Source: an uncultured Actinomycetes bacterium
GTDB lineage: Bacteria > Actinomycetota > Thermoleophilia > Gaiellales > JAICJC01
Reading direction: 5' to 3'
Assembly: GCA_963766445.1 (NCBI GenBank)
Contig: CAVXZW010000029.1
Span: forward strand, 28,681-92,680
Length of the DNA stretch: 64,000 bases
Shown: positions 3,960-57,265 of the stretch, piece by piece
Numbering within the stretch: the stretch's first letter is position 1
How the letters are laid out: the number at the start of each line of letters is the position of its first letter
The notes under the pieces: generated by a model
What the model was told of the DNA's origin: nothing
What the model saw: the letters and a program-made list of their open reading frames with translations, nothing else
Database searches by the model: none
Position numbers and translations under genes: made by a program

Positions 3960-3973
<14 letters not shown>
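2864..3973 (+). CDS. carA: Carbamoyl-phosphate synthase small (glutaminase) subunit
   Basis: GTG at 2864 overlaps the pyrC stop (GTGA). Motifs: '[11 protein letters not shown]' (catalytic Cys) and '[13 protein letters not shown]'. Confidence 0.93.
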
Positions 3974-7121
<3,148 letters not shown>

Positions 7122-11250: not shown

Positions 11251-12233
11251 GTGGAAGCATCAGAGCTGCACGACTCGACCCAGTCTCAGGCGATCACCAA
11301 CGCGGGCGTCATCGCTCGCCGCGTGATCGAGAACGTAGCCCGTGTGATCCATGCCCCGGACGGCCTGCTGGAGCGGTGCGTGATGGCGCTGCTGTGCGAG
11401 GGCCATATCATCCTCGAGGACTTCCCGGGAGTGGGCAAGACGATGCTCGCCAAGTCGCTGGCGCGGTCGCTGGACTGCGAGTTCGCGCGCATCCAGGCCA
11501 CGCCCGACCTGCTGCCGTCCGACATCACCGGCGTGAACGTCTACAACCTGCAGGCTAACGAGTTCGAGTTCCGGCCCGGCCCGGTGTTCGCGAACCTGGT
11601 GCTGGTCGACGAGATCAACCGCGCCAGCCCGAAGACCCAGTCGGCGTTGCTGGAGTGCATGCAGGAGGTGCAGGTCACCATCGATGGGTCGACCCACCGC
11701 GCTGGCCCGCCCGTTCATGGTGATCGCCACCCAGAACCCGATCGAGTACGAGGGCACGTTCCCGTTGCCCGAGGCCCAGCTCGACCGCTTCACGATGCGC
11801 CTGCACCTGGGTTACCCGGCCATCGCCGAGGAGGCGCGGATGCTGTCCGAGCACGCGGCCTCCGAGCCGATCGAGCTGCTGGAGCCGGTCGCGTCGGCCG
11901 CCGATCTGGAGTCCGCCATCGAGGCCGTCAAGAGCGTGTACGTCGAGGACAGCCTCAACCGGTACGTGGTCGCGATCCTGCGCCATACCCGTGGCGACTC
12001 GCGGCTTGCGCTGGGCGCCAGCCCACGCGCCGGCATCTCGCTGCTGCGCGTGGCCAAGGCGCTTGCGGCGCTGCACGGTCGCGAGTACGTGATCCCGGCC
12101 GACATCAAGGACGTGGCCGCCGACGTGCTCTCGCACAGGGTGATCATGGCCGCCGATGCGCGCACCGGCGGGGTCGATCCGTCCGAGGTGATCGGCGAGG
12201 CCGTCGACCGCACGCCGGTCCCGGTGTCGCTGA
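11251..12233 (+). CDS. MoxR-family AAA+ ATPase (frame break ~11700; stop not in the frame as given)
   Basis: Walker A 'FPGVGKT'; '[18 protein letters not shown]'; and, after a +1 shift, '[27 protein letters not shown]'. The C-terminus '...DRTPVPV' runs on with no stop in frame. A TGA at 12231 lies in another frame. Confidence 0.8.
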
Positions 12234-13464
12234 CCCCTCGCGGCAAAGGCACGCTCGTCCTCGCAGCCGGGCTGTACCTCGCCTCCTGGGGCTTCGGCAC
12301 CCACGCCATGTACCCGGTGGCGGTGGGCCTGCTGGCGGCGCCGGTGCTTGCCTGGTTGTGGGTGCGCCTGACGGCGCGCCCGACCGAGCTGCGGCGGCGC
12401 ACCGGCCATCGCGAGCTGGTCGAGGGCGGACGCGTGGTCGTGGAGGTCGAGATCCGGGCCGAGGGCGGACTGCTGCCCGCGCGCGCCACGCTGCTCGAGC
12501 AGATGGGCGATCTCGGCAGCCGCGAGCTGCCGCTGCGCCAGCGCGGTCACGCGCTCTACGGCCGCTACACGATCGATCCGGCGCCACGCGGCCGCTACAC
12601 GCTGGCAGCCGCCGAGCTGCGCGTCGACGATCCCCTGGGGCTGGCCGAGTCGCGGACGCAGCTGGCGCGCACCGACACGCTGCTCGTCTATCCCCGCGTT
12701 TACGAGCTCGACGGACTGTTCACCGACGCGGGCAGCGCGGGCGGCGACGAGGGCCGGGCGCTGCTGCACCGCACCGCCGGATACGACCTGCACTCGATCC
12801 GCGACTTCCAGCAGGGCGAGAGCCTGCGCCGGGTGCACTGGCGCTCCACGGCCAAGCGCCGCAAGCTGATGGTCAAGGAGCTGACCGAGCTGCCGCGGGA
12901 CGAATCAGCGGTGCTGCTCGACGGTGACCGCGACTCCAGCGTGGGCGCGCCCGGCGCCAGCAGCTTCGACGCACAGGTGCGGGCGGCGGCATCGCTGCTG
13001 AACAGGATGGTGGAGGGCGGCCAGCGCTGCTCGCTGGTGATGCACGGCCAGACCCGGCGGCGGATCCGGATCCGGGCCGGCGGCGGCGACTGGGGCACCG
13101 CCCTGGCGGCCCTTGCGGCCGTGCGGGCCGACGCCACCCAACCGCTGTCCACGATGCTGCGCGACACGCTCGGCGCAACCGGGGCGGCCGAGGCGATCGA
13201 CGCCGCCCGGCTGTACGTGGTCACCGCCGCGCTGAATCCGGATCTGGCGGCCCGGCTGCTGGCCATGCGCTCGGTCCGCCGCGACGTGGCCGTCGTGTGG
13301 GTGGACGCCCCGTCCTTCGCCGGAGTCGAGCGCGTGCCCGGGCCGGCCGAGGCGGCCTCGCTGCGGCTGGCCAGGGCGGGCGTGCCGGTCGCGCGGCTGG
13401 GCGCGGGCGACGACGTGGCCATGGCGCTCGGCTCGGCAATCGCAAGGAGGGCGGCATTGGCTGA
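12224..13464 (+). CDS. DUF58 (vWA-like) protein, MoxR partner
   Basis: GTG at 12224. Two N-terminal TM helices, then the DUF58 signature '[26 protein letters not shown]'. The probable stop TGA at 13462-13464 lies in a different frame, which implies a further indel near 13430-13460. Confidence 0.7.
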
Positions 13465-15736
13465 GCGGATCTGGGTGCTGGCGGCGGTGGCCCTGTTCAG
13501 CGGCTGGCACTGGCAGCAGCTCGAGCGCCCGACGCCGTCGCCCGGTGAGCTGGCGCTGCTGGCCGTGCTGGCGGCCGTGCCGGCCATCATCGCCGGGCTG
13601 GGACGGCGGCGGCTCGCGATGGCCGCGGCCGTCGGTGGCCACGCTGATCGCGATCTGGCGCGCCTTCGCCTACCTGCCGTGGGATCGCGGTCACCAGGTG
13701 TACCCGGTGCGGATCGTTTCAGGGCTGCACGACGGCGCCAAGAACTGGTTCGAGACCTCGACGCCGTTTGACCCGAGCCGGTTCGTCACGACCTCGGGGC
13801 TCGTAGATCTGTGCTTCTTCGCGCTGATGGCCGTGTTCGCCTGGCTGCTGATCGACGGCCGCTTCGCGCTCGCCGCCCTGGCCTGCGCGTTCGCGCTGTA
13901 CGCGATCCCGAGCACGGCGGTGGGGATGGGCAGCGCCGGCCTGCGCGCCGCCATCTTCCTGCTGCTGGCGCTGGCGATCCTGGCCGTCTGCCAGCGCCGC
14001 GTGCCGCTGGGCGGGGGCGCGATCGGCCAGCTGTCGGTGCTTGCGGTGGCGACGGTCGTGGCCGGGCTGGTGGTGGGATCGGCCCCGGGAGTCGCCAAGG
14101 GCGCTCTGTTCGACTGGCGCCACTGGAACCCGCTGGCCGGCAACGGCCCCCAGGTCAGCGTCGGCTACGTCTGGAACCAGGACTACGGGCCGCTGCACTG
14201 GCCGAAGCAGACCACGACGGTGTTCCAGGTGCAGTCGGCCCGTCCCCACTACTGGAAGGCCGGCGTGCTGACCGTCTTTGACGGCACCCGCTGGGTCTCG
14301 TCGCCGGCCACGCAGGCCAACTACCACGCCACCGACGCGATCGGGATCCCGGCCTCCCAGGAGACCTCCAAGGAGCTCCACCCCGACAGCGGGTCCGACA
14401 TCACGCAGGTCGGGTTCACCGTCGAGGCGCTGGCCGATTTTCGCCTGCTCTCGACCGGGCAGCCGCTCCGCTACACCCTCACCTCGCCGATCGACGCCAG
14501 CCTCACCACCGACGGCAGCGTGATCGCGAGTGGCGACCTGCCCCGCGGCGCCACCTACACCGTGCGGGCCTACTCGCCCAACCCCAAGCCGAAGCAGCTG
14601 GCCGAGGTCGGCAACGCGTTCTCGCCGTCCGTCGCGGAGACGGTGATCGTGAACCACGTGGCGATTCCCGTGTGGGGCAGCACCGCGAAGAAGCGGACGC
14701 TGGTGCCGATCGACGGCCGGCTGGTCGAGGCCAGCAATCAGGCGTGGCACGCGTCCGGGGCGGATGAGCCCGGCACCAGCGAGTACGGCGCGGTGGTCGC
14801 CCTCGAGTCGTACTTCCACGGCAAGCAGTTCCACTACGACCAGACGCCACCGGTCGGCCCGGGCCCGGTGCTGGCGTACTTCATGCTGCACTCCCACCGC
14901 GGCTACTGCCAGATGTACTCCGGTTCGATGGCGCTGGTGCTGCGCCTGCACGGCATCCCCGCCCGGGTCGCCTACGGGTTCACGGAAGGCTCGCAGACCC
15001 AGACCGGCTACAAGGTCACCGACCGCGACGCGCACGCGTGGGTCGAGGCGTTCTTCCCGAAGTACGGCTGGATCCCGTTCGAGCCGACGCCCACCCGGAA
15101 CCTGCCGGAGGTGCAGGCGTCCACCACCAACGCCAGCCTGGGTGAGGTCGATCGGCGACCCGAAGAACGCCAGCCAGTTCGGCATCCAGAGCCACCAGCT
15201 GCAGCGGCGGCTGGTTGGCAGCCGCGGGGCCACACGTCACCAACCTGGGTCGCGGCCACGGCTCCGGCGGCGGCGGCGCCCCGGATGTCGTGGCGGCGCG
15301 GTCGGGTGGCCACAGCTTCTTCCTGTGGGCAATCTCGGCGGCGGCCATCCTGATCGCGGTGCTGGCGGCGGTGAAGCTGGTCGCGGTGCGCTGGCGGTAC
15401 CTGCGGCGCGGCCCGCGGGGACAGGCCTCGGCCGCCTACCACGAGCTGGCCACCTACATCGGCGACCAGGGCGTCAGGGTCAATGCCAACGCCACCTTCG
15501 AGGAGCTGGCGGGGCTGGTCGAGCACACCTGGGGCGTGGACGCGTCGCCGCTGGCCACGGCCGGCAGCGCTGCCCGCTACGCGCCGCCCGCGATCGCCGA
15601 TCGTGCCGGGCACGAGGTGCGGCCGGCGCTGCGCCGGATCCGCCGCGACCTGCGCAAGAGCATCGACCTGCGCGACCGCGCGATGGGCTCGCTGCGGCTG
15701 CGATCGATGCTGGCTCAGACCACGCATCTCGACTAG
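13457..15736 (+). CDS. Transglutaminase-domain membrane protein (TgpA-like), several frame breaks
   Basis: TTG at 13457 lies 6 nt after AAGGAGG (13444-13450). There is a multi-TM N-terminus. The Cys-His-Asp core is 'HRGYCQMYSGSMALVLRLHGIPARVAYGF...DAHAWVEAFFPKYGWIPFEPTP'. A TM helix plus DUF4129-like tail is read in ORF 15215-15736. Frame shifts occur at ~13634 and within 15145-15230. Confidence 0.78.
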
Positions 15737-18708: not shown

Positions 18709-20790
18709 ATGGCAAAACGAACGGTCACAGACATCGCCCGCGAGCAGGGCGTCACGGAGGCTGAGGTCAAGGAAAAGCTTGACGCGGCCGGCACCGCCTC
18801 GGGCACGGACGACCTGATCGACGACGACGACGTGCGCCGCGCGTTCGGCGCCAAGGCCACCGTTCCCGCGCAGGAGCCTGGCCAGGCCGCCCGCCAGCCG
18901 CGCCCCCAGCGCGGCGCCACGGCCGGACGCCGCCGCCGAGTCGTGATCGATTCGCAGGCCGGCCGCCGTCCCGGTCAGCGCCGCGACCGCGGCGCACCGC
19001 GCCCGGAGGTCAAGCGCGAGCCGGAGGTGCCGACCGGGCCGGTCAAGGTCGAGTCGGGAGTCACGGTCAAGGACCTGGCCGAGAAGCTCGGCATCAGCCC
19101 CGCCAAGATCATCGCCTACATGATGTCCGAGGGGCAGATGGTGACGCTGACGGTGTCGCTGTCCGACGACGACGTGCTGCTGATCGGCCTCGAGTTCGAC
19201 CGCGAGATCACGATCGCGCACACGGCAGACGAGGAGGACGAGGAGGTCGTCTACGACGATCCCGAGGACTCGCTCCAGCAGCGGCCGCCGGTGGTCACGA
19301 TCATGGGCCACGTCGACCACGGCAAGACCACGCTGCTCGACTCGATCCGCGAGTCGTCCGTGGTATCGACCGAGGCCGGCGGCATCACGCAGCACATCGG
19401 CGCCTATCAGGTCGACGTCGACGGCGGCCGCAAGGTCACCTTCCTGGACACCCCGGGGCACGAGGCCTTCACGGCCATGCGCGCCCGCGGCGCCAAGGTC
19501 ACCGACGTGGCCGTGCTGGTGGTCGCCGCGGACGACGGCGTGATGCCCCAGACGGTGGAGGCGATCGACCACGCCAAGGCGGCATCCGTGCCGATCGTGG
19601 TGGCCGTCAACAAGATCGACAAGGAGGACGCGAACCCGGAGCGGGTGCGTGGCGAGCTGGTCAACCACGGCCTGCAGCCGGAGGAGTGGGGCGGAGACAC
19701 GATCTTCGTCGACGTCTCGGCCAAGGCCAAGGAGAACCTCGACCAGCTGCTCGAGATGCTGCTGCTGCAGTCAGACGTGCTGGAGCTGAAGGCCAACCCG
19801 AACGCCGAGGCGAGCGGCGTCATCATCGAGTCGCGCCTGGACGTCGGCCGCGGGCCGGTGGCGACGCTGCTGGTGCAACGCGGCACCCTGCGCGTGGGCG
19901 ACGCAGTGGTCGCCGGCGACGCCTGGGGACGCGTGAAGGCGCTGAACGACCACAACGGCAAGCGCGTCAAGGAGGCCGGGCCGGCGGTGCCGGTCGAGAT
20001 CCTGGGCTTCGACAAGCCGCCGCCGGCGGGTGAGTTCTGCCACGTCGTCGAGAACGACCGGATCGCCCGCCAGATGGCGCAGAAGCGCGCACAGCGGATC
20101 CGCACCGAGATGCTGGCCCGCCGCAACAAGGCGGTCAGCCTGGAGGATCTGTTCTCCGCGGTGCAGGAAGGGGCGGTGCAGGAGCTGGGCCTGATCATCA
20201 AGGCCGACGTGCAGGGCTCGGTCGAGGCCGCCGAAGGCGAGATCGCCAAGATCCAGCACCCCGAGGTGACGGTCAGCGTGATCCACTCCGGCGTCGGCGG
20301 CATCACCGCCTCGGACATCAACCTGGCCGCCGCGTCCAACGCGATCGTGGTCGGCTTCAACGTCCGCCCGAACGCCGAGGCGAAGGCGCTGGCCGAGCGC
20401 GAGGGCGTCGACATCCGCACCTACAAGGTGATCTACCAGCTGACCGAGGACATCCAGCAGGCGCTGATCGGCATGCTCGCTCCCGAGCAGGTCGAGGAGA
20501 TCCTGGGCGAGGCCGAGGTGCGCCAGACGTTCAAGGTCTCGCGGCTGGGCACGATCGCAGGCTGCATGGTCACGAGCGGCGTCATCCAGCGCGGTGCGCA
20601 GGTACGGCTGCTGCGCGACGGCGCGATCGTCCACGACGGCCGCATCGCCACGCTGCGACGCGTCCAGGACGACGTACGCGAGGTGCAGCAGGGCTTCGAG
20701 TGCGGCCTCACGATCGAGGGCTACAACGACGTCAAGGAAGGCGACGTGCTCGAGGTCTACACGGTCAGGGAAGTCGCCCGCACCAGCTAG
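18709..20790 (+). CDS. infB: Translation initiation factor IF-2
   Basis: 693-aa intact ORF. G-domain motifs '[12 protein letters not shown]', 'DTPGHEAF' and 'NKIDK'. Confidence 0.96.
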
Positions 20791-22354
20791 TCGCTCGCCA
20801 GGCGGATCAGCCGTTCCAGGCCGATGCCGCTGGTGAACAGGCGCTCGGCCCGGTCGGAAAGCAGGCGCTGCGTCCAGTCGGTGCTGCCGCCGTCGGCCAC
20901 CGACAGACTGCGGCCGTCGCGCTCGACGTCGATGTTCAGCAGCAGGCCGTTGTAGTACCCGATCCCGGCCAGCCGGCCGACGCGGAAGCCGAGCCGGGCT
21001 TCCGGGAACTGTTCTCGCGAGCGGTCGCGTACACCCGCTCCCGCACCAGCTCCAGCAGCCGGCTGCCCTCGACCCGCTCGGCGAACCGCTCCACCGCCAC
21101 GCCCGACTCGGCCAGCAGCTGCTCGGGATCGAGATCGTCGTCCCGGGCCTGGTCGGCGAGGTCGTCCAGGTCGGCCCGCGCCTCTCGGCAGAGCGCGCGC
21201 AGCAGCGCCGTGTCGCTGACCTCGACCAGCGGACGGCCGGCGTCGTACCCGGCGGCCGTCAGGGCCGCGATCACGCGCAGGTGGGCGGCGATGTGCTCGT
21301 GCAGGGCGGCCAGCCCGAAGCCGTGGTCGGGCCGCCTGCGCCCGCCGCTGACCAGCGCGAACAGCCCGAAGTGCTGGTTCCAGCCGCCGCCGAACTGCTG
21401 CATGCGCAACACCCGTCCCACCCAGCAGAGCCGCACCGAGGCCTCGCCGCCGCGCCGCCGCAGGGCCGCCTCCAGGGCCAGGCTGGTGGTGGGGTCGGCC
21501 AGCACCTCGCCGCTGCGGACGGTTGCAAGCGACAGGTTCTGATCGAGCCCGCCCAGCACCGTGTTGACGCCGGCGGGGGCCACCGGCGAGAGCGTCACCG
21601 GCTCGAACCCGGGCGCGGCGTCGATCGCCAGCAGCCCCGCCAGCTGCAGCGCGCGCCCGTCCACCGCGACCGGCGCCAGCGTGGCGTCGTCGCGCCGCGC
21701 CTGCAGGACGCCCGCCGGGTCGAGACCCGCCGCGCGGCGCCGGGTGACATGCAGCAGCAGCGAGCGCAGGTCGGAGGTGGGCAGCTCCTCGAGCTGGTCG
21801 ACCAGCGCGCCCTGACGACGAAGGCGCCTCACCACCGGGCCCGGCGGCGGCACGTCCAGCCAGCGGCGCATCCGCAGCTCCATCATGTCGGGCGCGACGT
21901 CGGCCGGCTGCGGCCCGGCGATCACCTCGAAGCCGCAGCGGCGGTAGAGGTCGAGGGCGCCCGTGTTCAGCTCGCGCACGTCAAGCTCGATCGAGGCGCT
22001 GCCCTGGCGTGCCGCCCACCGGCACACGCCCTCCACCAGGCGTTGCCCGATCCCGCGCCGGCGCCATTCCGGGTCGACCCACATCGCCACCAGATCTGCC
22101 GCGCGGGCGGGGTCGAGGCGCAGGCCGGTGGCGCTGCCGACGTGGCGGTCGCCGTCGACGACGTGGAAGGTGGCCACCTGCGAGCTCTGCGCCGCGATCG
22201 CGGCACGCTCCTGCCAGAACTCCTCCGGCTGGGCCGCCTCGTCGGCGTGACGCGACGCGAACGCATCGGGCGTGTCCAGCAGCATCGCTAGGCGCACGCG
22301 GCGCAGCTCATCGGCCTCGTCGACGCGGACGCGTCGCATGCGCAGGTTGCTCAC
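20787..22354 (-). CDS. GNAT N-acetyltransferase fused to a class-II aminoacyl-tRNA-synthetase-like (HisRS/HisZ-type) core; one frame break ~21014
   Basis: GTG at 22354 overlaps the antiporter stop (GTGA). The N-terminal part carries the GNAT motif A 'VAMWVDPEWRRRGIGQRLV'. The C-terminal part carries 'RLCWVGRVLRMQQ...NQHF', 'GIGYYNG', 'ADGGSTDW' and 'FTSGIGLERL'. The last 75 aa are read in a second frame ending at 20787. Confidence 0.6.
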
Positions 22355-23820
22355 GCGCCAACCGTACGCGATCCGCCCTCGAACACGGCCTGGGCATGTG
22401 CGCTCGTGCCCAGCACCAGCACCTCGTCGCCGGCCCGCAGCACCGAGTCGCCGCGGGCCTGGCGGGCGGCGCCGTCGCGCATGATCAGGCTGATCCAGGC
22501 GCGCTCGCCGAGGACGAGGTCGCGCAGCGCCACCCCGTCGGCGGGCGACCCGGCGGCGACCACGTACCGCCCGACCTCCTGCGGCTCGTCTCGGAGGCGC
22601 ACCGACAGGTCCCACGGCTCCTGGTGGATCTGCCGCATCTGCAGGCCAACCCGGCCGGCCACCGTCGGCACCAGCGATCCCTGCACGACCACCGAGAACA
22701 TCACGACCACGAACACGATCCCGTAGATGCGGTTGGCGTGGTCGACGCCCTCCAGCAGCGTGAACGCGGCCAGCAGGATCGGCACCGCGCCGCGCATGCC
22801 GGCCCAGGCGATGAACACCTTCTCGCCCCGCGTCAGCCGTGCCCGCGCCAGCAGCGCCGCCACCACCACCGGCCGCGCCACGAACGTCAGCAGCACCGCC
22901 ACCGCCAGACCGTCCAGCCAGACGCTGCGCAGGTCGAGCGAGCCGAGGTCGATGGTCAAGCCCAGGGCGACGAACACGACGATCTCGCCGAGGCTTGCGA
23001 GCGCCTTGTGGAAGTGCTCGATCTCGGCCTTGTAGGGAGCGCGCAGGTCGGCGATCAGGACGCCGGTGACGAACACGGCCAGGAAGCCGGAGCCGTGCAG
23101 CACCGAGGCCAGGCCGTACACGATGCCGGCGGCGGACAGGGTCAGCAGCGGGTAGAGAGCGGAGTCGGGCAGCATCAGGTCACGCATGGCACGCCCCAGC
23201 GCGAGGCCGCCGATCACGCCGACCACCAGGCCGACCGCCATCTGCAGCGCGAAATCCTCCGCGATCGCCACGCTCGAGCCGCTGTTGGTGGCGATGTCGA
23301 GCAGGCCGATCACGAGCGCGATCCCGACCGGGTCGTTGACCCCGGACTCGCCCTTGAGGATGTCGTCGCTGCGGCCGCTCACCTCGCTGCCGCCCAGCAC
23401 CGAGAACACCACCGCCGGGTCGGTGGGCGCGAGCGCCGCCCCGATCAGGAGCGACGTCGTCCAGCTGGCACCGAACAGCGCGTGGACGAGCACCGCCAGC
23501 AGGCCCGCCACCAGGAACGTGCCGACCACCCCGAGGCTCACGATCGGCCACAGCGACTCGCGGAACCGCGTCACGCCGATGTCCATGCCGCCGTCGAACA
23601 GGATCACGATCAGCGCCACGAGGCAGATCCGCTCGACGTCGTGGATCGTCAGCAGCGGCGCCAGATTCGGGATCAGGTCGGACGACACCGTGGCCGCCGC
23701 CAGGAACAGCGCGGGGGCCGGCACGCGCAGCCGCCCGCTGATGCGGCTGGAAAGGATGGCGACCGCGAAGCCGACCGCGACGATCAGCACCACGCGGCCG
23801 AACTCGGCGGCGTCGGTCAC
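22351..23820 (-). CDS. Monovalent cation:proton antiporter (CPA1/NhaP-type) with C-terminal TrkA-C (RCK_C) domain
   Basis: 489 aa with ~12 TM helices. The soluble tail '...GSPADGVALRDLVLGERAWISLIMRDGAARQARGDSVLRAGDEVLVLG' is typical of RCK_C. Confidence 0.85.
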   Translation of the reverse strand: MTDAAEFGRVVLIVAVGFAVAILSSRISGRLRVPAPALFLAAATVSSDLIPNLAPLLTIHDVERICLVALIVILFDGGMDIGVTRFRESLWPIVSLGVVGTFLVAGLLAVLVHALFGASWTTSLLIGAALAPTDPAVVFSVLGGSEVSGRSDDILKGESGVNDPVGIALVIGLLDIATNSGSSVAIAEDFALQMAVGLVVGVIGGLALGRAMRDLMLPDSALYPLLTLSAAGIVYGLASVLHGSGFLAVFVTGVLIADLRAPYKAEIEHFHKALASLGEIVVFVALGLTIDLGSLDLRSVWLDGLAVAVLLTFVARPVVVAALLARARLTRGEKVFIAWAGMRGAVPILLAAFTLLEGVDHANRIYGIVFVVVMFSVVVQGSLVPTVAGRVGLQMRQIHQEPWDLSVRLRDEPQEVGRYVVAAGSPADGVALRDLVLGERAWISLIMRDGAARQARGDSVLRAGDEVLVLGTSAHAQAVFEGGSRTVGA

Positions 23821-32261: not shown

Positions 32262-32344
32262 CAGGGCTGCGGCGGTCTGACCCTTTCGAGGGACAGACCG
32301 CCGCAAACCCCACTGCTAGAGTGGCCCCAGTGCAGCGGTACACC

Positions 32345-33617
32345 ATGACCACGCTCGATGGCGGAGAGCGAATCGTCACCGAGCGTGTCCGGTCGGTGCG
32401 CTCCGTCGCGCTCGGGATCTGGATCGGTGCCGGTTCCCGTGACGAGACCGCCGAGCGCGCCGGCATCAGCCACTTCATCGAGCACCTCCTGTTCAAGGGC
32501 TCGTCCCGCTACTCGGCGTGCAGATCGCGCAGGTGTTCGACGGCCTCGGCGGAGAGCTGAACGCCGCCACCGCGAAGGAGTACACGGTGCTCTACGCGCG
32601 GGTGCTGGACGCGCACCTGGAGTCGGCGCTGGACGTGATGAGCGACATGCTGCTGGCGCCAACCTTCGACGCGGACGAGCTCAACTCCGAGCGCGAGGTG
32701 GTGCTGGAGGAGATCGCGATGTACGAGGACAGCTTCCACGACCTCGCCCACGACCTGATCGCCGGCGCCGTGTTCGGCGCCCATCCGCTGGGCCGGCCGG
32801 TGATCGGCACCAGCCGCGGCCGTGAACGCGATCGACACCGCCATGGTGCGCGACTACCACGCGAACCGCTACGTCGGCCCCAACATCGTGATCGCCGCGG
32901 CCGGCAACCTCGAGCACGAGCCGCTGGTGCACGCCATCCAGCAGCGCTTCGAGGCCTACAGCAAGGTGCCCGACCCGTCGGCCGGCGTGCGGCCGGTCTG
33001 GGTGGGCGAGTCGAGCCCGCAGACCGTGTTCCAGGCCAAGGCCAGCGAGCAGTACCACGTCTGCCTGGGCGGCGCTCGGCCTGCAGCGCTCCGACCGGCG
33101 CCGATTCGCCGCCTCGCTGCTCGACTCGATGCTGGGCGGATCGGCATCGTCGCGGCTGTTCCAGGAGATCCGGGAGCGGCGCGGCATGGCCTACTCGGTC
33201 TACACGTTCGGCTCCCAGTACGCCGACACCGGCATGGTCGGCGTCTACGTCGGCACCCGCGAGGACAACCTGGCCGAGTGCATGCGCATCACCGCCGACC
33301 AGCTGGTGCGGATGGGGCAGGGGGAATTCGCCGACGACGAGCTGCGGCGCTCCAAGGAGAACCTGAAGGGGCGGATCATGCTGTCGATGGAGTCGACCTC
33401 GAACCGCGCCAGCCGGCTGGGCAAGTCGGTGCTGACCGACACCGAGCTGCTGTCGCTCGACCGCATCTGCGCCGAGATCGACTCCGTCGAGCCGGAGGCG
33501 GTGGCGTCGCTGGCCCGCCAGCTGTTCGCACCCGATCGCCTGTCGGTGTCCGGCGTGGGGCCGGACGAGGATCGCTTCCGCGAGGCCGTGGCCGCGCTGA
33601 ACCCCGCGCTCGCCTGA
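32345..33617 (+). CDS. M16 family zinc peptidase (pitrilysin-like), three frame breaks
   Basis: HxxEH motif 'HFIEHLLFKG'. Four colinear ORF pieces (32321-, 32518-, 32822-, 33129-) include 'LGGSASSRLFQEIRERRGMAYSVY'. Shifts occur at ~32517 (-1), ~32814 (+1) and ~33073 (+1). Confidence 0.85.
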
Positions 33618-34730
<1,113 letters not shown>

Positions 34731-54340: not shown

Positions 54341-55026
54341 ATGAACATCGACTGGCATGGTCAATCCGCGTTCACGCTGCGCGGCAGCGAGCGTTCGGTG
54401 CTGATCGACCCGTTCGACCAGCGGCTGCGGCCCGAGGGCATGTCCATCCGCTTCGACTACCCCCAGATCCCGCAGCAGCAGGTCGACCTGCTGCTGATCA
54501 CGCATGAGCACTTCGACCACAACGGCGCGGCTGTCGCCGACGGCAGCCCGCAGGTGGTGCGAAGCACGGCCGGGAAGCTTCGACAGCACGCCGGTGGGCG
54601 AGGTGATCGCGATCGCGTCGGAGCACGACGACCAGGCCGGCACGCGTCGCGGGCCCGAACACGATCTTCGTGTTCGCGCTGGACGGCATCCGCGTCTGCC
54701 ACATGGGCGACTTCGGCCAGGCCGCGCTGCGGCCGGAGCAGCGGGAGGCGATCGGCACCGTCGACCTGCTGTTCGTCCCGGTCGGCGGCGGACCCACGAT
54801 CGGCGCCGAGGACGCGGCCGAGATCACACGCGCACTCGACCCGCGCTGGGTGGTGCCGATGCACTACCGCACCGACCTGATCGACTTCCTGGAGCCGGCC
54901 GATGCCTTCCTGGCCGCGTTCGACGATGCGCACACGCCGGGCGCCGGCGGGTTTGACCTGTCCGGCGTGCCCGCCGGCGATCGACCCCGGGTCGTGCAGC
55001 CGGGCCCGGCCGCCGTCCCGGCGTAG
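54341..55026 (+). CDS. MBL-fold metallo-hydrolase, two frame breaks (~54578, ~54655)
   Basis: ATG follows GGAGGG. Motif 'LLITHEHFDHNG' (HxHxDH). Later pieces 'FDSTPVGEVIAIASEHDD' and 'TIFVFALDGIRVCHMGDFGQ...WVVPMHY' lie in two other frames. Confidence 0.75.
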
Positions 55027-55051
55027 GGCCCGCCGCGGATACACTCAGGGC

Positions 55052-56372
55052 GTGAAGCGCTACCACGTCCAGACCTTCGGCTGCCAGATGAACGTGCATG
55101 ATTCCGAGCGGATCAAGGGCCTGCTGGAGTCGCTGGGAATGGGAGAGGCGCGGGATCAGGGCGAGGCCGACGTGCTGGTGTTCAACACCTGCACGATCCG
55201 TGAGAAGGCGGACGAACGGTTCGTGGCGCACCTGATGGAGGCGCGTGCGGCCAAGCAGCGCGACCCGGAGAAGCGAATCGTGGTCGGCGGCTGCTGGTCG
55301 GAGTCGATGAAGCAGGAGCTGTTCGACCTCTACCCGTTCGTCGATCTGGCGTTCGGCCCGGGCGCCATCCACAAGCTGGGCGACTACATCACCGCCGGCG
55401 GCGAGCTGCCGGAGGGCCACTTCTCGACCTTCGACCACTTCGCCGGCCACCTGCCCGGCAAGCGCGAGCGCCGCCACCAGGCCTGGCTGCAGATCTCGCA
55501 GGGCTGCAACTCGAAGTGCAGCTACTGCATCGTCCCCAGCGTGCGCGGCCGCGAGCAGAGCCGGTCGCTGGATGACCTGGTCGGGGAGGCGCGGCGGCTG
55601 GCCGCCGACGGCGTCCGCGAGCTGACGCTGCTGGGCCAGAACGTCAACTCCTGGGGGCGCGACCTGCCCGCCGGCGGAGCGGGCCGGGTTCGGCGGTCTG
55701 CTCCGCCATCTGGACGAGGTGGACGGCATCGCGCGCATCCGTTTCACCAGCCCGCACCCAAAGGACATGCGCGACGACGTGATCGCAGCCATGGCCGAGT
55801 GCGAGTCCGTCTGCGAGCACCTGCACCTGCCGCTGCAGTCGGGCTCCACGCGCGTGCTGAAGGCGATGCGCCGCACCTACAGCGCCGAGCGCTACCTGGG
55901 CCTGGTCGAGCGGATCCGCACGGCCATCCCCGGCATCGCCCTCACCACCGACATCATCGTCGGCTTCCCCGGTGAGACGGAGGCCGACTTCGAGCAGACG
56001 ATGGAGGTGGTGGACGCCGTCGGCTACGACCACGCCTTCACCTTCGTCTACTCGCCGCGGCGCGGCACCGAGGCGGCCGTGATGGCCGAGCAGGTGCCGG
56101 AGGACGTCAAGCGCGACCGCATCACGCGGCTGGTCGACCTCGTGCAGCGCCACGCGGCCGAGCACAACGCCGCGCTGGTCGGCACCGTCCAGGAAGTGCT
56201 GGTGGAGGGGCCCAGCCGCACCGACCCGTCCATGCTGCGCGGCCGCACCCGCGGCAACAAGACCACGCTGTTTCGAGGCGATGTCGGCGAGGGCGAGCTG
56301 GCGCTGGTCGAGATCCTGCGATCGACCTCCCAGACGCTGGGCGGCCGCCCGGCCGTCACCGCCGCGGCCTGA
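55052..56372 (+). CDS. miaB: tRNA-2-methylthio-N6-dimethylallyladenosine synthase, one frame break at 55660-55688
   Basis: Motifs 'VQTFGCQMNVHDSE' and the radical-SAM 'GCNSKCSYCIVP'. The second frame reads 'IRFTSPHPKDM', followed by a TRAM domain. Confidence 0.92.
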
Positions 56373-56385
56373 CCGATGGCGCGCC

Positions 56386-57265
56386 GTGATCGCGGTCTAC
56401 GGGCCCACCGCGTCCGGCAAGAGCGCGGCGGCGCTGACCCTGGCCACGCGGCTCGATGCCGAGATCGTCAACTGCGACGCGATGCAGCTGTACGCCGGAC
56501 TGCCGGTGCTGACCAACCAGCCCTCGCCCGAGCACCTGGCGCAGGCACCGCATCACCTGGTCGGCGTCTGGCCGCTGTCGCACGAGGGCTCGGTGGCCGA
56601 GTACGCCGAGCTGGCCCGCGCCGCGATCAAGGACGTGCACGGGCGCGGCCGCGACGTGATCCTGTGCGGTGGCAGCGGCCTCTACCTGCGCGCGGCGCTG
56701 TCCCCGCTGGAGCTGCCGCCGGCGCCGGCCGATGGCGTGCGCGAGCGCTACCAGCGGATCTACGACCAGCGTGGCGCCGGCGCGGCGCACGCGTTGCTGG
56801 CCGAGCTCGATCCGGCCGCTGCCGCCGCCGTCCACGAGAACGACCGCCGTCGCGTCGTGCGCGCGCTGGAGCTGGCCGACGCCGGCGCCACGCTCGCCCC
56901 CGCCGCCGGGACGCTGTGGCTGGAGCCTCCGGAGGGCACGGTGATCCTGGGGCTGGAGGTAGCCGGCCGATACCGTGCGGGAGCGGATCGAGGCCCGCAC
57001 CCGGGCGATGTTCGAGCTCGGGGTCGAGCGTGAGGTGGCCGCCGCCGTCGCGGCGGGTCCGCTGTCGGCCACGGCCGCCCGCATCCACGGCCTGTCCGAC
57101 GTGCGTGCGCTGCTCGACGGCGAGATCGACCGCGACGAGGCGGTGCGGCGCCTCGTCGTGCGCACCCGCCAGTACGCCCGGCGCCAGCGGGTCTGGATGC
57201 GGCGACTGCCGGGCGTGAGGCCGGTGGCCGGGCCGGATCAGCTGCTGGCCGAGGCGACGGCATGA
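56386..57265 (+). CDS. miaA: tRNA dimethylallyltransferase, one frame break ~56960
   Basis: GTG at 56386. P-loop 'GPTASGKS', then 'CDAMQLY' and 'GGSGLYLRA'. The C-terminal part is in ORF 56975-57265. Confidence 0.9.

Follow-up and report, generated by a model that had tools for sequence, protein, structure and literature searches.

A GNAT acetyltransferase fused to a HisRS-like class II core in Gaiellales soil bacteria belongs to a family of synthetase paralogues that appears undescribed

A single fusion gene in a Gaiellales genome

We analyzed a stretch of 64,000 nucleotides (hereafter the window) from contig CAVXZW010000029.1 of an uncultured Gaiellales bacterium (Thermoleophilia, Actinomycetota). 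The minus strand of the window carries, from 22354 down to 20787, a gene that joins an N-terminal GNAT N-acetyltransferase domain to a class II core resembling histidyl-tRNA synthetase (HisRS) and its paralogue HisZ. An original prediction, made from the sequence alone, had read this region as one polypeptide on the basis of a set of short peptide motifs. All of these were found in the translation, namely RRRGIGQRLV (22034-22063), VLADPTTSLA (within 21476-21517), RLCWVGRVLRMQQ..NQHF (21353-21433), GIGYYNG (within 20946-20978), ADGGSTDW (within 20859-20900), and FTSGIGLERL (within 20808-20843). These and all further features of the gene given below lie on the minus strand.

The extent of the gene (20787..22354) was established from the list of open reading frames (ORFs) and from a six-frame translation. 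The mechanically compiled list held a 559-aa ORF at 20936-22615, and the six-frame translation showed that the coding sequence runs on in a different frame down to a TAG stop at 20787-20789. Two start codons are candidates, GTG at 22354 and ATG at 22339, the former sharing the tetranucleotide GTGA with the stop of the upstream antiporter gene. Removal of two nucleotides at 21024-21025 yielded one ORF of 521 codons, to which we refer as the repaired gene. The prediction had placed a single-nucleotide break near 21014. The break itself was confirmed, but alignment to five intact orthologous loci located it at 21024-21025 and defined it as a net gain of two nucleotides (equivalent to the loss of one). 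The sequence around these positions is locally scrambled relative to the same five loci.

This frame break is probably an assembly error and not a biological feature, because four kinds of evidence converge. First, intact orthologues of 510-537 aa exist, including those of loci L005-L009 and protein P0002, which has 520 aa, is 90% identical to the window protein, and comes from a short-read contig. Second, the 78 codons downstream of the break look selected: they contain zero stop codons, and their differences from the closest locus (L006, 94% nucleotide identity) comprise 11 synonymous and 4 non-synonymous codons. Third, housekeeping and other genes of the window are also broken: carB occupies two overlapping frames, dapB is cut off within DapB_C, miaB has no N-terminus, only the last third of miaA remains, an M16 peptidase is a fragment, and a MoxR-like AAA ATPase is devoid of most of its ATPase domain. 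Fourth, close relatives encoded on long contigs of the 'contig_N' type (P0005, P0015, P0036, and P0113) display different frameshifts. The many broken genes indicate that the window is an uncorrected, indel-rich long-read assembly. The broken housekeeping genes are located at 3960-6864, 11684-15736, 32321-34155, and 54670-57265.

The prediction of a single polypeptide thus stood, supported by the intact orthologues and by a frame break that is best explained as an error of assembly. In this Gaiellales soil bacterium, GNAT domain and HisRS-like core are genuinely encoded by one gene.

The GNAT domain

The N-terminal domain (21860..22339; aa 1-160 counted from the Met at 22339) was recognized by the Pfam model Acetyltransf_1 (PF00583) over aa 37-137, with a score of 64.1 bits against a gathering cut-off of 20.7 (E 1.8e-17), as had been predicted. 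The acetyl-CoA pyrophosphate-binding loop RRRGIGQRLV (22034..22063) fits the pattern R/Q-x-x-G-x-G/A, and its R..g.G form was kept in 21 of 21 aligned fused proteins. Further downstream, the strand and helix IELDVRE...DLYRRCGF (21929..21991) aligned to WLEVRASN...ALYESLGF of RimI, a segment that presumably carries the proposed catalytic Glu and Tyr of that enzyme. The closest solved structures to the GNAT part were also RimI proteins (5isv, 1e-8, and 2cnm). The RimI equivalog TIGR01575 gave 46.8 bits, under its cut-off of 86.4, and the model of the N-acetylglutaminylglutamine amide (NAGGN) synthetase Ngg, TIGR03103, displayed a weak match restricted to the GNAT part. Judging from the intact loop and the aligned Glu and Tyr, the domain looks catalytically competent and RimI-like.

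The C-terminal module has the fold of HisRS and HisZ

The C-terminal module (20790..21847; aa ~165-516) was assigned to the HisRS/HisZ-like class II core from an AlphaFold2 (AF2) model combined with Foldseek, from PF13393 matches in its relatives, and from family searches. Searches of the repaired protein against Pfam and NCBIfam only partly followed the original prediction: Acetyltransf_1 was matched, but nothing was found on the C-terminal ~350 aa, neither by PF13393 (tRNA-synt_His) nor by the HisZ models (TIGR00443 and NF0089xx). The homology of this part is visible only via relatives, the family profile, and the fold, because direct searches with hidden Markov models matched the GNAT domain only.

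A homologue search recovered 113 relatives, among which the GNAT-fused proteins measured 465-537 aa and many others were standalone proteins of ~285-390 aa. The core module makes up the entire length of the standalone proteins, which start exactly where the module starts in the fusion. PF13393 matched 16 of 79 aligned family members at E<=1 (best E 5e-8); against its cut-off of 25 bits, P0002 scored 24.2 and P0184 33.8. When the family profile was run against PDB sequences, the top match was the HisRS of T. thermophilus, with a marginal E of 0.08 and the correct register, while a phmmer search of P0184 against PDB returned nothing useful. TIGR00443 matched two relatives weakly, the best being P0062 with 25.6 bits against a cut-off of 271.65.

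The structural evidence was far clearer. A model of P0002, the 90%-identical intact orthologue, built by AF2 from the 79-sequence alignment reached a predicted local distance difference test (pLDDT) score of 93.8 and a predicted template modeling (pTM) score of 0.91. In this model the two modules are predicted with confidence to be tightly packed in a fixed interdomain arrangement. All of the top 50 Foldseek matches in PDB were HisZ, HisRS, or the HisRS-like domain of GCN2 (E 4e-14 to 1e-11, ~320-345 aligned columns), with E values down to 4e-13 for HisRS structures. The fold match and the motif alignment described below confirm the predicted class II core with motifs 1-3 in HisRS order.

The absence of an anticodon-binding domain, a trait shared with HisZ, was likewise borne out. 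The protein stops six residues past motif 3 (the tail after GLERL is IRLASD) and not eight as originally counted, and the distance from the DGG motif to the C-terminus is 31-64 residues (mostly 31-46) in all full-length family members examined. A plain hisZ and a separate GNAT gene split by a real stop codon were considered and are excluded by the intact orthologues and the failed HisZ model.

Pocket residues of the module

Conservation was computed over 157 family sequences from many phyla. Family residues are numbered as in P0002 and HisRS residues as in E. coli; the E. coli HisRS sequence was checked against 1KMM and found to be 100% identical over 424 aa. An hhalign comparison with this single sequence aligned only the last 60 residues, in a gapless manner. 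In this register Y461/Y462 correspond to Tyr263/Tyr264 of HisRS, G483/G484 to Gly285/Gly286, D487 to Asp289, and R509 to Arg311, while A457 occupies the position of the catalytic Arg259.

The module begins with a family-specific N-terminal helical extension of ~75 aa, which starts at VVRRLRR (21815..21835) and holds the near-invariant R172. A class II motif 1-like sequence, GFEPVTLSPVAP (21575..21610), contains the invariant Pro252 and Pro255, the latter present in 145 of 157 sequences. In the segment RSGEVLADPTTSLA (21476..21517), R275 and D282 are invariant and E278 and T284 near-invariant. Aligned by eye in the register of the motifs, D282 and T284 would correspond to Glu83/Thr85, the alpha-amino clamp of HisRS (LRPEGT). 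Motif 2, RLCWVGRVLRMQQFGGGWNQHFGLFAL (21353..21433), was also aligned by eye and without gaps to E. coli HisRS, which places R312 at Arg113, Q314 at Glu115, and F324 at Phe125. Within this motif, R312, Q314, H323, and F324 are invariant, with R309 nearly so. The loop of motif 2 varies between members and has no equivalent of Arg121 of HisRS. The positions of the histidine-specific Gln127 and Glu131 are Leu and Val/Ala in the by-eye register, so that neither residue is conserved.

Downstream, the segment GRLAGIGYYNG (20946..20978) contains the invariant Tyr-Tyr pair and the Ala at the Arg259 position. This position is variable across the family, and the near-invariant R455 lies two residues upstream of it. 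The segment VADGGSTDWTQRLL (20859..20900), with a D-G-G..W core and the near-invariant D487, aligned to A-G-G-R-Y-D-G of HisRS. In motif 3, RLFTSGIGLERL (20808..20843), R499 is near-invariant and the Arg of ERL aligned with Arg311 of HisRS, a residue without which class II synthetases do not bind ATP. The window protein has this motif-3 Arg, as do 24 of 27 fusions of the Gaiellales type, but among standalone members it occurs in only 39 of 130.

Over the 157 sequences, P252, R275, D282, R312, Q314, H323, F324, Y461, and Y462 are invariant; E278, R309, D482, G483, G484, and W488 display a single exception or alignment gap each; and R172, T284, R455, D487, R499, S503, G504, and G506 are nearly invariant. 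The module therefore seems to keep the Asp/Thr that hold the alpha-amino group in HisRS, the Tyr-Tyr and Gly-Gly floor of the pocket, the motif-2 Arg that contacts the alpha-phosphate, and the adenine-stacking Phe. To these it adds a conserved polar set of its own (R275, E278, R309, H323, D482, W488, R455, and R499). Since Arg259, Gln127/Glu131, and the motif-2 loop Arg are lost and this polar set is added, the protein is neither a tRNA synthetase nor HisZ. The residue pattern makes an amino-acid-type ligand, bound along with an adenylate-type moiety, the most likely occupant of the pocket. Because the window protein has retained the Arg of motif 2 as well as that of motif 3, adenylation is possible for this member.

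A distinct family of HisRS-derived proteins

Comparison with HisRS and HisZ placed the module beside both. HisZ, a HisRS paralogue, is the regulatory subunit of the short-form ATP phosphoribosyltransferase. The module shares with it a HisRS-like class II core devoid of the anticodon-binding domain and the absence of the HisRS catalytic machinery; HisZ is also close in size to the standalone members (~300-390 aa) and supplies the best Foldseek matches (8oy0, 3od1, 6fu7, and 1z7m). In contrast to HisZ, it fails the HisZ model, has no association with hisG in the contexts examined, and carries its own R275, E278, R309, H323, D482, and W488 as well as the N-terminal helical extension of ~75 aa. 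The recurrent fusion to GNAT domains described below is a further difference; to our knowledge, no such fusion has been described for HisZ.

The likeness to HisRS lies in motifs 1, 2, and 3 and HisA/HisB-like motifs that occur in the same order, in the gapless alignment of the C-terminal 60 residues to the E. coli enzyme, and in the retained motif-2 Arg, stacking Phe, Tyr-Tyr, and Gly-Gly. Unlike HisRS, the module lacks the anticodon-binding domain and shows no conservation of Arg259, Gln127, Glu131, and Arg121; the family can dispense with the motif-3 Arg, and in place of the motif-2 Glu it has an invariant Gln. Sequence similarity between the two is marginal (E 0.08, profile against PDB sequences). 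Taken together, the sequence comparisons mark the module as neither HisRS nor HisZ but a distinct paralogous family that goes back to the class II core of HisRS/HisZ.

This family is large and widespread. An exhaustive profile search of 1.84 billion representatives retrieved 931 clusters at a threshold of E<=1e-30, a number that rose to 1762 at 1e-10 and to 2362 at 1e-3, and a scan of one genome per species detected relatives in 487 of 185,579 species. About 95% of the members are standalone proteins, generally of 290-390 aa, which were found in Bryobacteraceae/Terriglobia, Myxococcota, Solirubrobacter, Nonomuraea, Chloroflexia, Planctomycetota, candidate phyla radiation (CPR) bacteria, and others. 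In the same one-genome-per-species scan, the full-length GNAT fusion of the window type occurred only in metagenome-assembled genomes of Gaiellales/Thermoleophilia. Where the source gives these proteins a name at all, it is 'hypothetical protein', and neither Pfam nor NCBIfam holds a model of the family.

Recurrent and independent fusion to GNAT domains

Among the best 150 family representatives, any protein with an extra domain was a GNAT fusion. The GNAT domain is N-terminal in P0009 (which represents the Gaiellales type), P0160, P0193, P0289, and P0298, and C-terminal in P0235 and P0267, each of the C-terminal fusions having been recovered from two independent samples. The GNAT partners belong to at least five subfamilies, according to NCBIfam resemblances that were all under the curated cut-offs: the Gaiellales domain is RimI-like, those of P0193 and P0235 are ArsN1/PAT-like, those of P0298 and P0267 are of the Acetyltransf_3 type and BlmB/RimL-like, that of P0160 is PseH/STAT-like, and that of P0289 is EctA-like. 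Most partners thus resemble acetyltransferases of amino acids or small amines (ArsN1/PAT, EctA, STAT, and BlmB), and RimI/RimL types also occur. The GNAT domains of P0193 and P0235 are 48% identical and stand at opposite ends of their proteins.

The HisRS-like modules of P0160, P0193, P0235, P0267, P0289, and P0298 are each nearer to a standalone protein than to another fusion type. The fusions are therefore polyphyletic and derive from at least five events. Since fusions to GNAT are exclusive, repeated, and independent, module and GNAT domain very likely act in the same process and are functionally coupled. The coupling of the two halves that the original prediction had proposed thereby gained strong support.

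Three further proteins deserve mention. P0139 (L092:4584-6236), a single metagenomic protein, has a HisN-like histidinol-phosphatase/IMPase domain fused to the HisRS-like module. Its HisN-like domain scored 222 bits with TIGR02067, under the cut-off of 275, and in this one sequence is the only non-GNAT partner seen. It may be a weak lead towards histidine or inositol-phosphate metabolism, or the product of a lost stop codon. P0157 (701 aa, on a JGI contig of 3091 nt) consists of a GNAT domain and the first ~80 module residues, 92% identical to P0002, followed by a TPR/MalT-like region, which points either to a chimera created in assembly or to a gene rearrangement. P0146 (647 aa) was considered as a further architecture and rejected as an over-extended ORF call, its true start matching P0103.

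A proposed coupling of amino-acid handling to N-acetylation

We tentatively favor a two-step process on a small molecule, by analogy with known enzyme pairs, in which the handling of an amino acid by the HisRS-like module is coupled to N-acetylation by the GNAT domain. In the first step, an amino acid would serve as the substrate of the module, which would handle it without involvement of tRNA and might adenylate or ligate it. In the second, the GNAT domain would use acetyl-CoA to N-acetylate the amine-bearing product. The same logic of an ATP-dependent amino-acid ligase followed by an N-acetylating GNAT applies to MshC and MshD of mycothiol synthesis and to Ngg, which holds a GNAT and an ATP-grasp ligase in one polypeptide, the ligase being non-homologous to the HisRS-like module. 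The original prediction had cited MshC and MshD as a parallel. The logic of the pathway is indeed comparable, but there is no kinship, since MshC is a class I (CysRS-like) enzyme, and membership of the window protein in that system was rejected for this reason.

This two-step process is favored because GNAT is the sole recurrent partner and the partners mostly resemble acetyltransferases of amino acids or small amines, and because the pocket shows the invariance of a catalytic site, the majority of the family is standalone, and the window protein has both ATP-binding arginines. We also entertain, with less confidence, a broader proposal: the module might represent a major HisRS-derived lineage, the third beside HisZ and the HisRS-like domain of GCN2, made up of enzymes that activate or ligate amino acids independently of tRNA and whose partner GNAT N-acetylates the product. 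If this were so, there would be a new route to an N-acetyl-aminoacyl metabolite, for instance a compatible solute or a compound resembling low-molecular-weight thiols. It would be widespread in soil Acidobacteriota, Myxococcota, Actinomycetota, Chloroflexota, and others, with the GNAT fusions serving as the Rosetta stone of the pathway.

Several observations weigh against the two-step process. The closest structural relatives, HisZ and the HisRS-like domain of GCN2, are both non-catalytic regulators. The family has no aligned equivalent of the catalytic Arg259 and the loop Arg121 of HisRS, and about 70% of the standalone members carry Leu, Phe, or Tyr in place of the motif-3 Arg. Class II pockets bury the amine of the ligand, so the GNAT domain could act only after release of the product. 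A general regulatory module could account just as well for the diversity of the GNAT partners. No neighboring gene was conserved across taxa in an all-versus-all clustering of ORFs from ~90 loci and in 14 annotated contexts. Finally, GNAT genes adjoining a standalone member are rare and were seen only in Solirubrobacter and at one CPR locus.

Alternative functions of the fusion protein

The alternative that fares best is that of a ligand-gated acetyltransferase, which we consider possible although doubtful. Here the module would have no catalytic role and would sense an amino acid and/or a nucleotide by binding it, thereby controlling the activity or specificity of the GNAT domain on substrates that might be proteins or small molecules. 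By analogy, this would possibly resemble the action of HisZ on HisG, of the HisRS-like domain on the GCN2 kinase, and of the regulatory domains in actinobacterial ACT- and cNMP-GNATs. The top structural matches include the regulatory HisZ, which is catalytically inactive and binds histidine, and the GCN2 domain. Arg259, Arg121, and mostly also the motif-3 Arg are lost, as in a pseudo-enzyme. The pTM of 0.91 points to a fixed interface between the domains, varied GNAT subfamilies are attached to one invariant pocket, and GNAT lysine acetyltransferases (KATs) with fused ligand-binding domains are already known from actinobacteria. On the other hand, general sensors usually fuse to many types of output domain, and GNAT is the only recurrent partner here. 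In addition, ~95% of the family consists of standalone proteins, for which no conserved partner gene was found, about 15 polar residues that are invariant across phyla at ~35% overall identity look more catalytic, and the N-terminal position of the GNAT domain is unlike the order in described type III KATs.

The systems to which this alternative appeals are only partly comparable. The GCN2 domain (8t7t, Foldseek E 1e-11) is derived from HisRS, does not aminoacylate, and is fused to a catalytic signaling domain, as would be the case here. It differs in that it keeps an anticodon-binding-like part, binds tRNA or ribosomes, is eukaryotic, and has a protein kinase as its partner. ACT-GNAT ('AAPatA'), cNMP-GNAT (PatA), and NADP-GNAT proteins likewise combine an actinobacterial GNAT with a ligand-binding module and are controlled by amino acids or nucleotides. 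The HisRS-like class II core falls outside these three described types of regulatory domain. Type III (class I-beta) bacterial KATs are defined by an N-terminal ACT, cNMP-, or NADP-binding domain ahead of a GNAT at the C-terminus (PMC6456759). The window protein falls outside this definition, its GNAT domain being N-terminal and its second domain a HisRS-like core.

An improbable alternative is that the pocket recognizes an aminoacyl-adenylate-like moiety, either of an aminoacyl-nucleotide antibiotic that inhibits synthetases or the aminoacyl-A76 of tRNA, which the GNAT domain would acetylate. The outcome would be detoxification, as by MccE or RimL-like enzymes, or control of translation, as by TacT or AtaT, and the standalone proteins would be binding or decoy proteins. 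GNAT enzymes do acetylate aminoacyl-nucleotides and aminoacyl-tRNAs. Moreover, the retained residues are contacts to the amino acid, the alpha-phosphate, and the adenine, while Arg121, Arg311, and Arg259, which contact the beta- or gamma-phosphate or stabilize adenylation, are lost or dispensable. GNAT domains of the Acetyltransf_3 (RimL/BlmB-like) type occur in two fusion lineages, and the Gaiellales gene is convergent on infB, inside the nusA-infB-rbfA cluster. This adjacency may merely be inherited gene order, however. There is no anticodon-binding domain, the variable motif-2 loop has no conserved basic residues for a tRNA acceptor stem, the buried alpha-amine would be out of reach of the GNAT domain as long as the ligand is bound, and no toxin-antitoxin or resistance-cluster setting was detected in the annotated contexts examined.

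It is highly improbable that the module is a divergent HisZ or another component of the histidine pathway, binding histidine or histidinol to regulate or assist the biosynthesis, with GNAT as a lineage-specific addition. HisZ is the closest fold, TIGR00443 matched two relatives weakly, and P0139 joins a HisN-like domain to the module. However, the scores with TIGR00443 are at most a tenth of the cut-off and the window protein went unmatched, the Glu131 and Gln127 that bind imidazole in HisRS are not conserved, and the HisN fusion is one sequence whose adjacency was not repeated in the other ~90 loci. Apart from it, no hisG or other his gene was found within +/-4-8 kb in the annotated contexts.

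We give the least credence of all to the copy in the window being a decaying pseudogene, or the fusion a functionless artifact of a noisy assembly: the frame break does stand in the sequence and the assembly is rich in indels, but short-read assemblies and at least nine species-level Gaiellales genomes contain this fusion in intact form, the segment after the break is free of stops and its differences are chiefly synonymous, and the fusion is kept down to 45% identity.

Relation to described architectures

Paralogues of aminoacyl-tRNA synthetases (aaRSs) have taken on unexpected roles as enzymes or regulators, as exemplified by AsnA, HisZ, EpmA, MshC, the amino acid:carrier-protein ligases, and GCN2. 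The original prediction did not recognize the present architecture as a described family, and this held true: there is no Pfam or NCBIfam model of it, and it is absent from reviews of GNAT KATs and of HisRS paralogues. Reviews of bacterial GNAT KATs list only ACT, cNMP, and NADP domains as fused regulatory domains, and a 2022 review names HisZ as the only paralogue function of HisRS. Our full-text search of the literature found no HisRS-like or tRNA-synthetase-like protein combined with a GNAT domain that matches this architecture.

The known cases of a class II aaRS joined to a GNAT-fold module are the fusions of aaRSs to MprF, represented by LysX (LysRS-MprF) and the fungal AspRS-MprF-like proteins. 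Like the window protein, they unite a module derived from a class II synthetase with a GNAT-fold module in one polypeptide. They consist of a complete, tRNA-charging class II aaRS and an MprF-like domain that transfers from aminoacyl-tRNA (PMC2922099). The window protein, in contrast, has no anticodon-binding domain, and its GNAT is of the acetyl-CoA-dependent Acetyltransf_1 type. We conclude that the module represents a new family of aaRS paralogues within a new GNAT architecture, which appears to be undescribed.

These findings have implications for the study of abundant but little-studied soil lineages such as Gaiellales and Bryobacteraceae. A family of about 900-1,700 clusters, present in ~490 species genomes, stands without a model and without literature that we could find, and its repeated fusion to GNAT yields a concrete hypothesis, namely a pocket for an amino acid or adenylate coupled to N-acetylation. 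If the module is an enzyme, it hints at a new N-acetylated metabolite in these lineages. If it is a sensor, it would be a fourth kind of regulatory domain for bacterial acetyltransferases.

Genomic neighborhood

In Gaiellales the fusion gene is flanked by infB and DUF503-rbfA and runs antisense to them, within an otherwise co-directional nusA-infB-DUF503-rbfA-nrnA-truB-ribF cluster. In the window, the stop codons of infB (TAG, 20788-20790, plus strand) and of the fusion gene (TAG, 20787-20789, minus strand) overlap in the palindrome CTAG. This placement is kept in Gaiellales relatives of 57-62% identity (L002 and the contig of P0013), while a relative at 45% identity carries the fusion gene in yet another context.

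The gene upstream of the fusion gene, also on the minus strand (22351..23820), encodes a Na+/H+ exchanger that carries a TrkA_C (RCK) domain at its C-terminus, and the stop of this gene overlaps the GTG of the fusion gene by 4 nt. This overlap suggests translational coupling of the two genes. The pairing is kept in L002 (57% identical) and is absent from the P0013 contig (62% identical), so it is not obligatory.

Across the ~90 loci, conserved neighborhoods reflect lineage-local gene order only and thus point to no pathway. Neighbors encoding HSP70-like, amidase, sigma-54-activator, and GH32 proteins were confined to one clade each. In Myxococcota of the class Polyangia (L004:6120-7930, L038, and L066), the standalone gene shares sequence with the end of a neighboring gene, whose 294-aa product consists of the AAA domain of sigma-54 activators alone, with no receiver or DNA-binding domain called. 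In Solirubrobacter phytolaccae (L003:3170-5984), the standalone gene overlaps the next gene, which encodes a 381-aa protein, and two genes downstream lies a GNAT of the Acetyltransf_3 type that is unrelated to the GNAT domain of the Gaiellales fusion.

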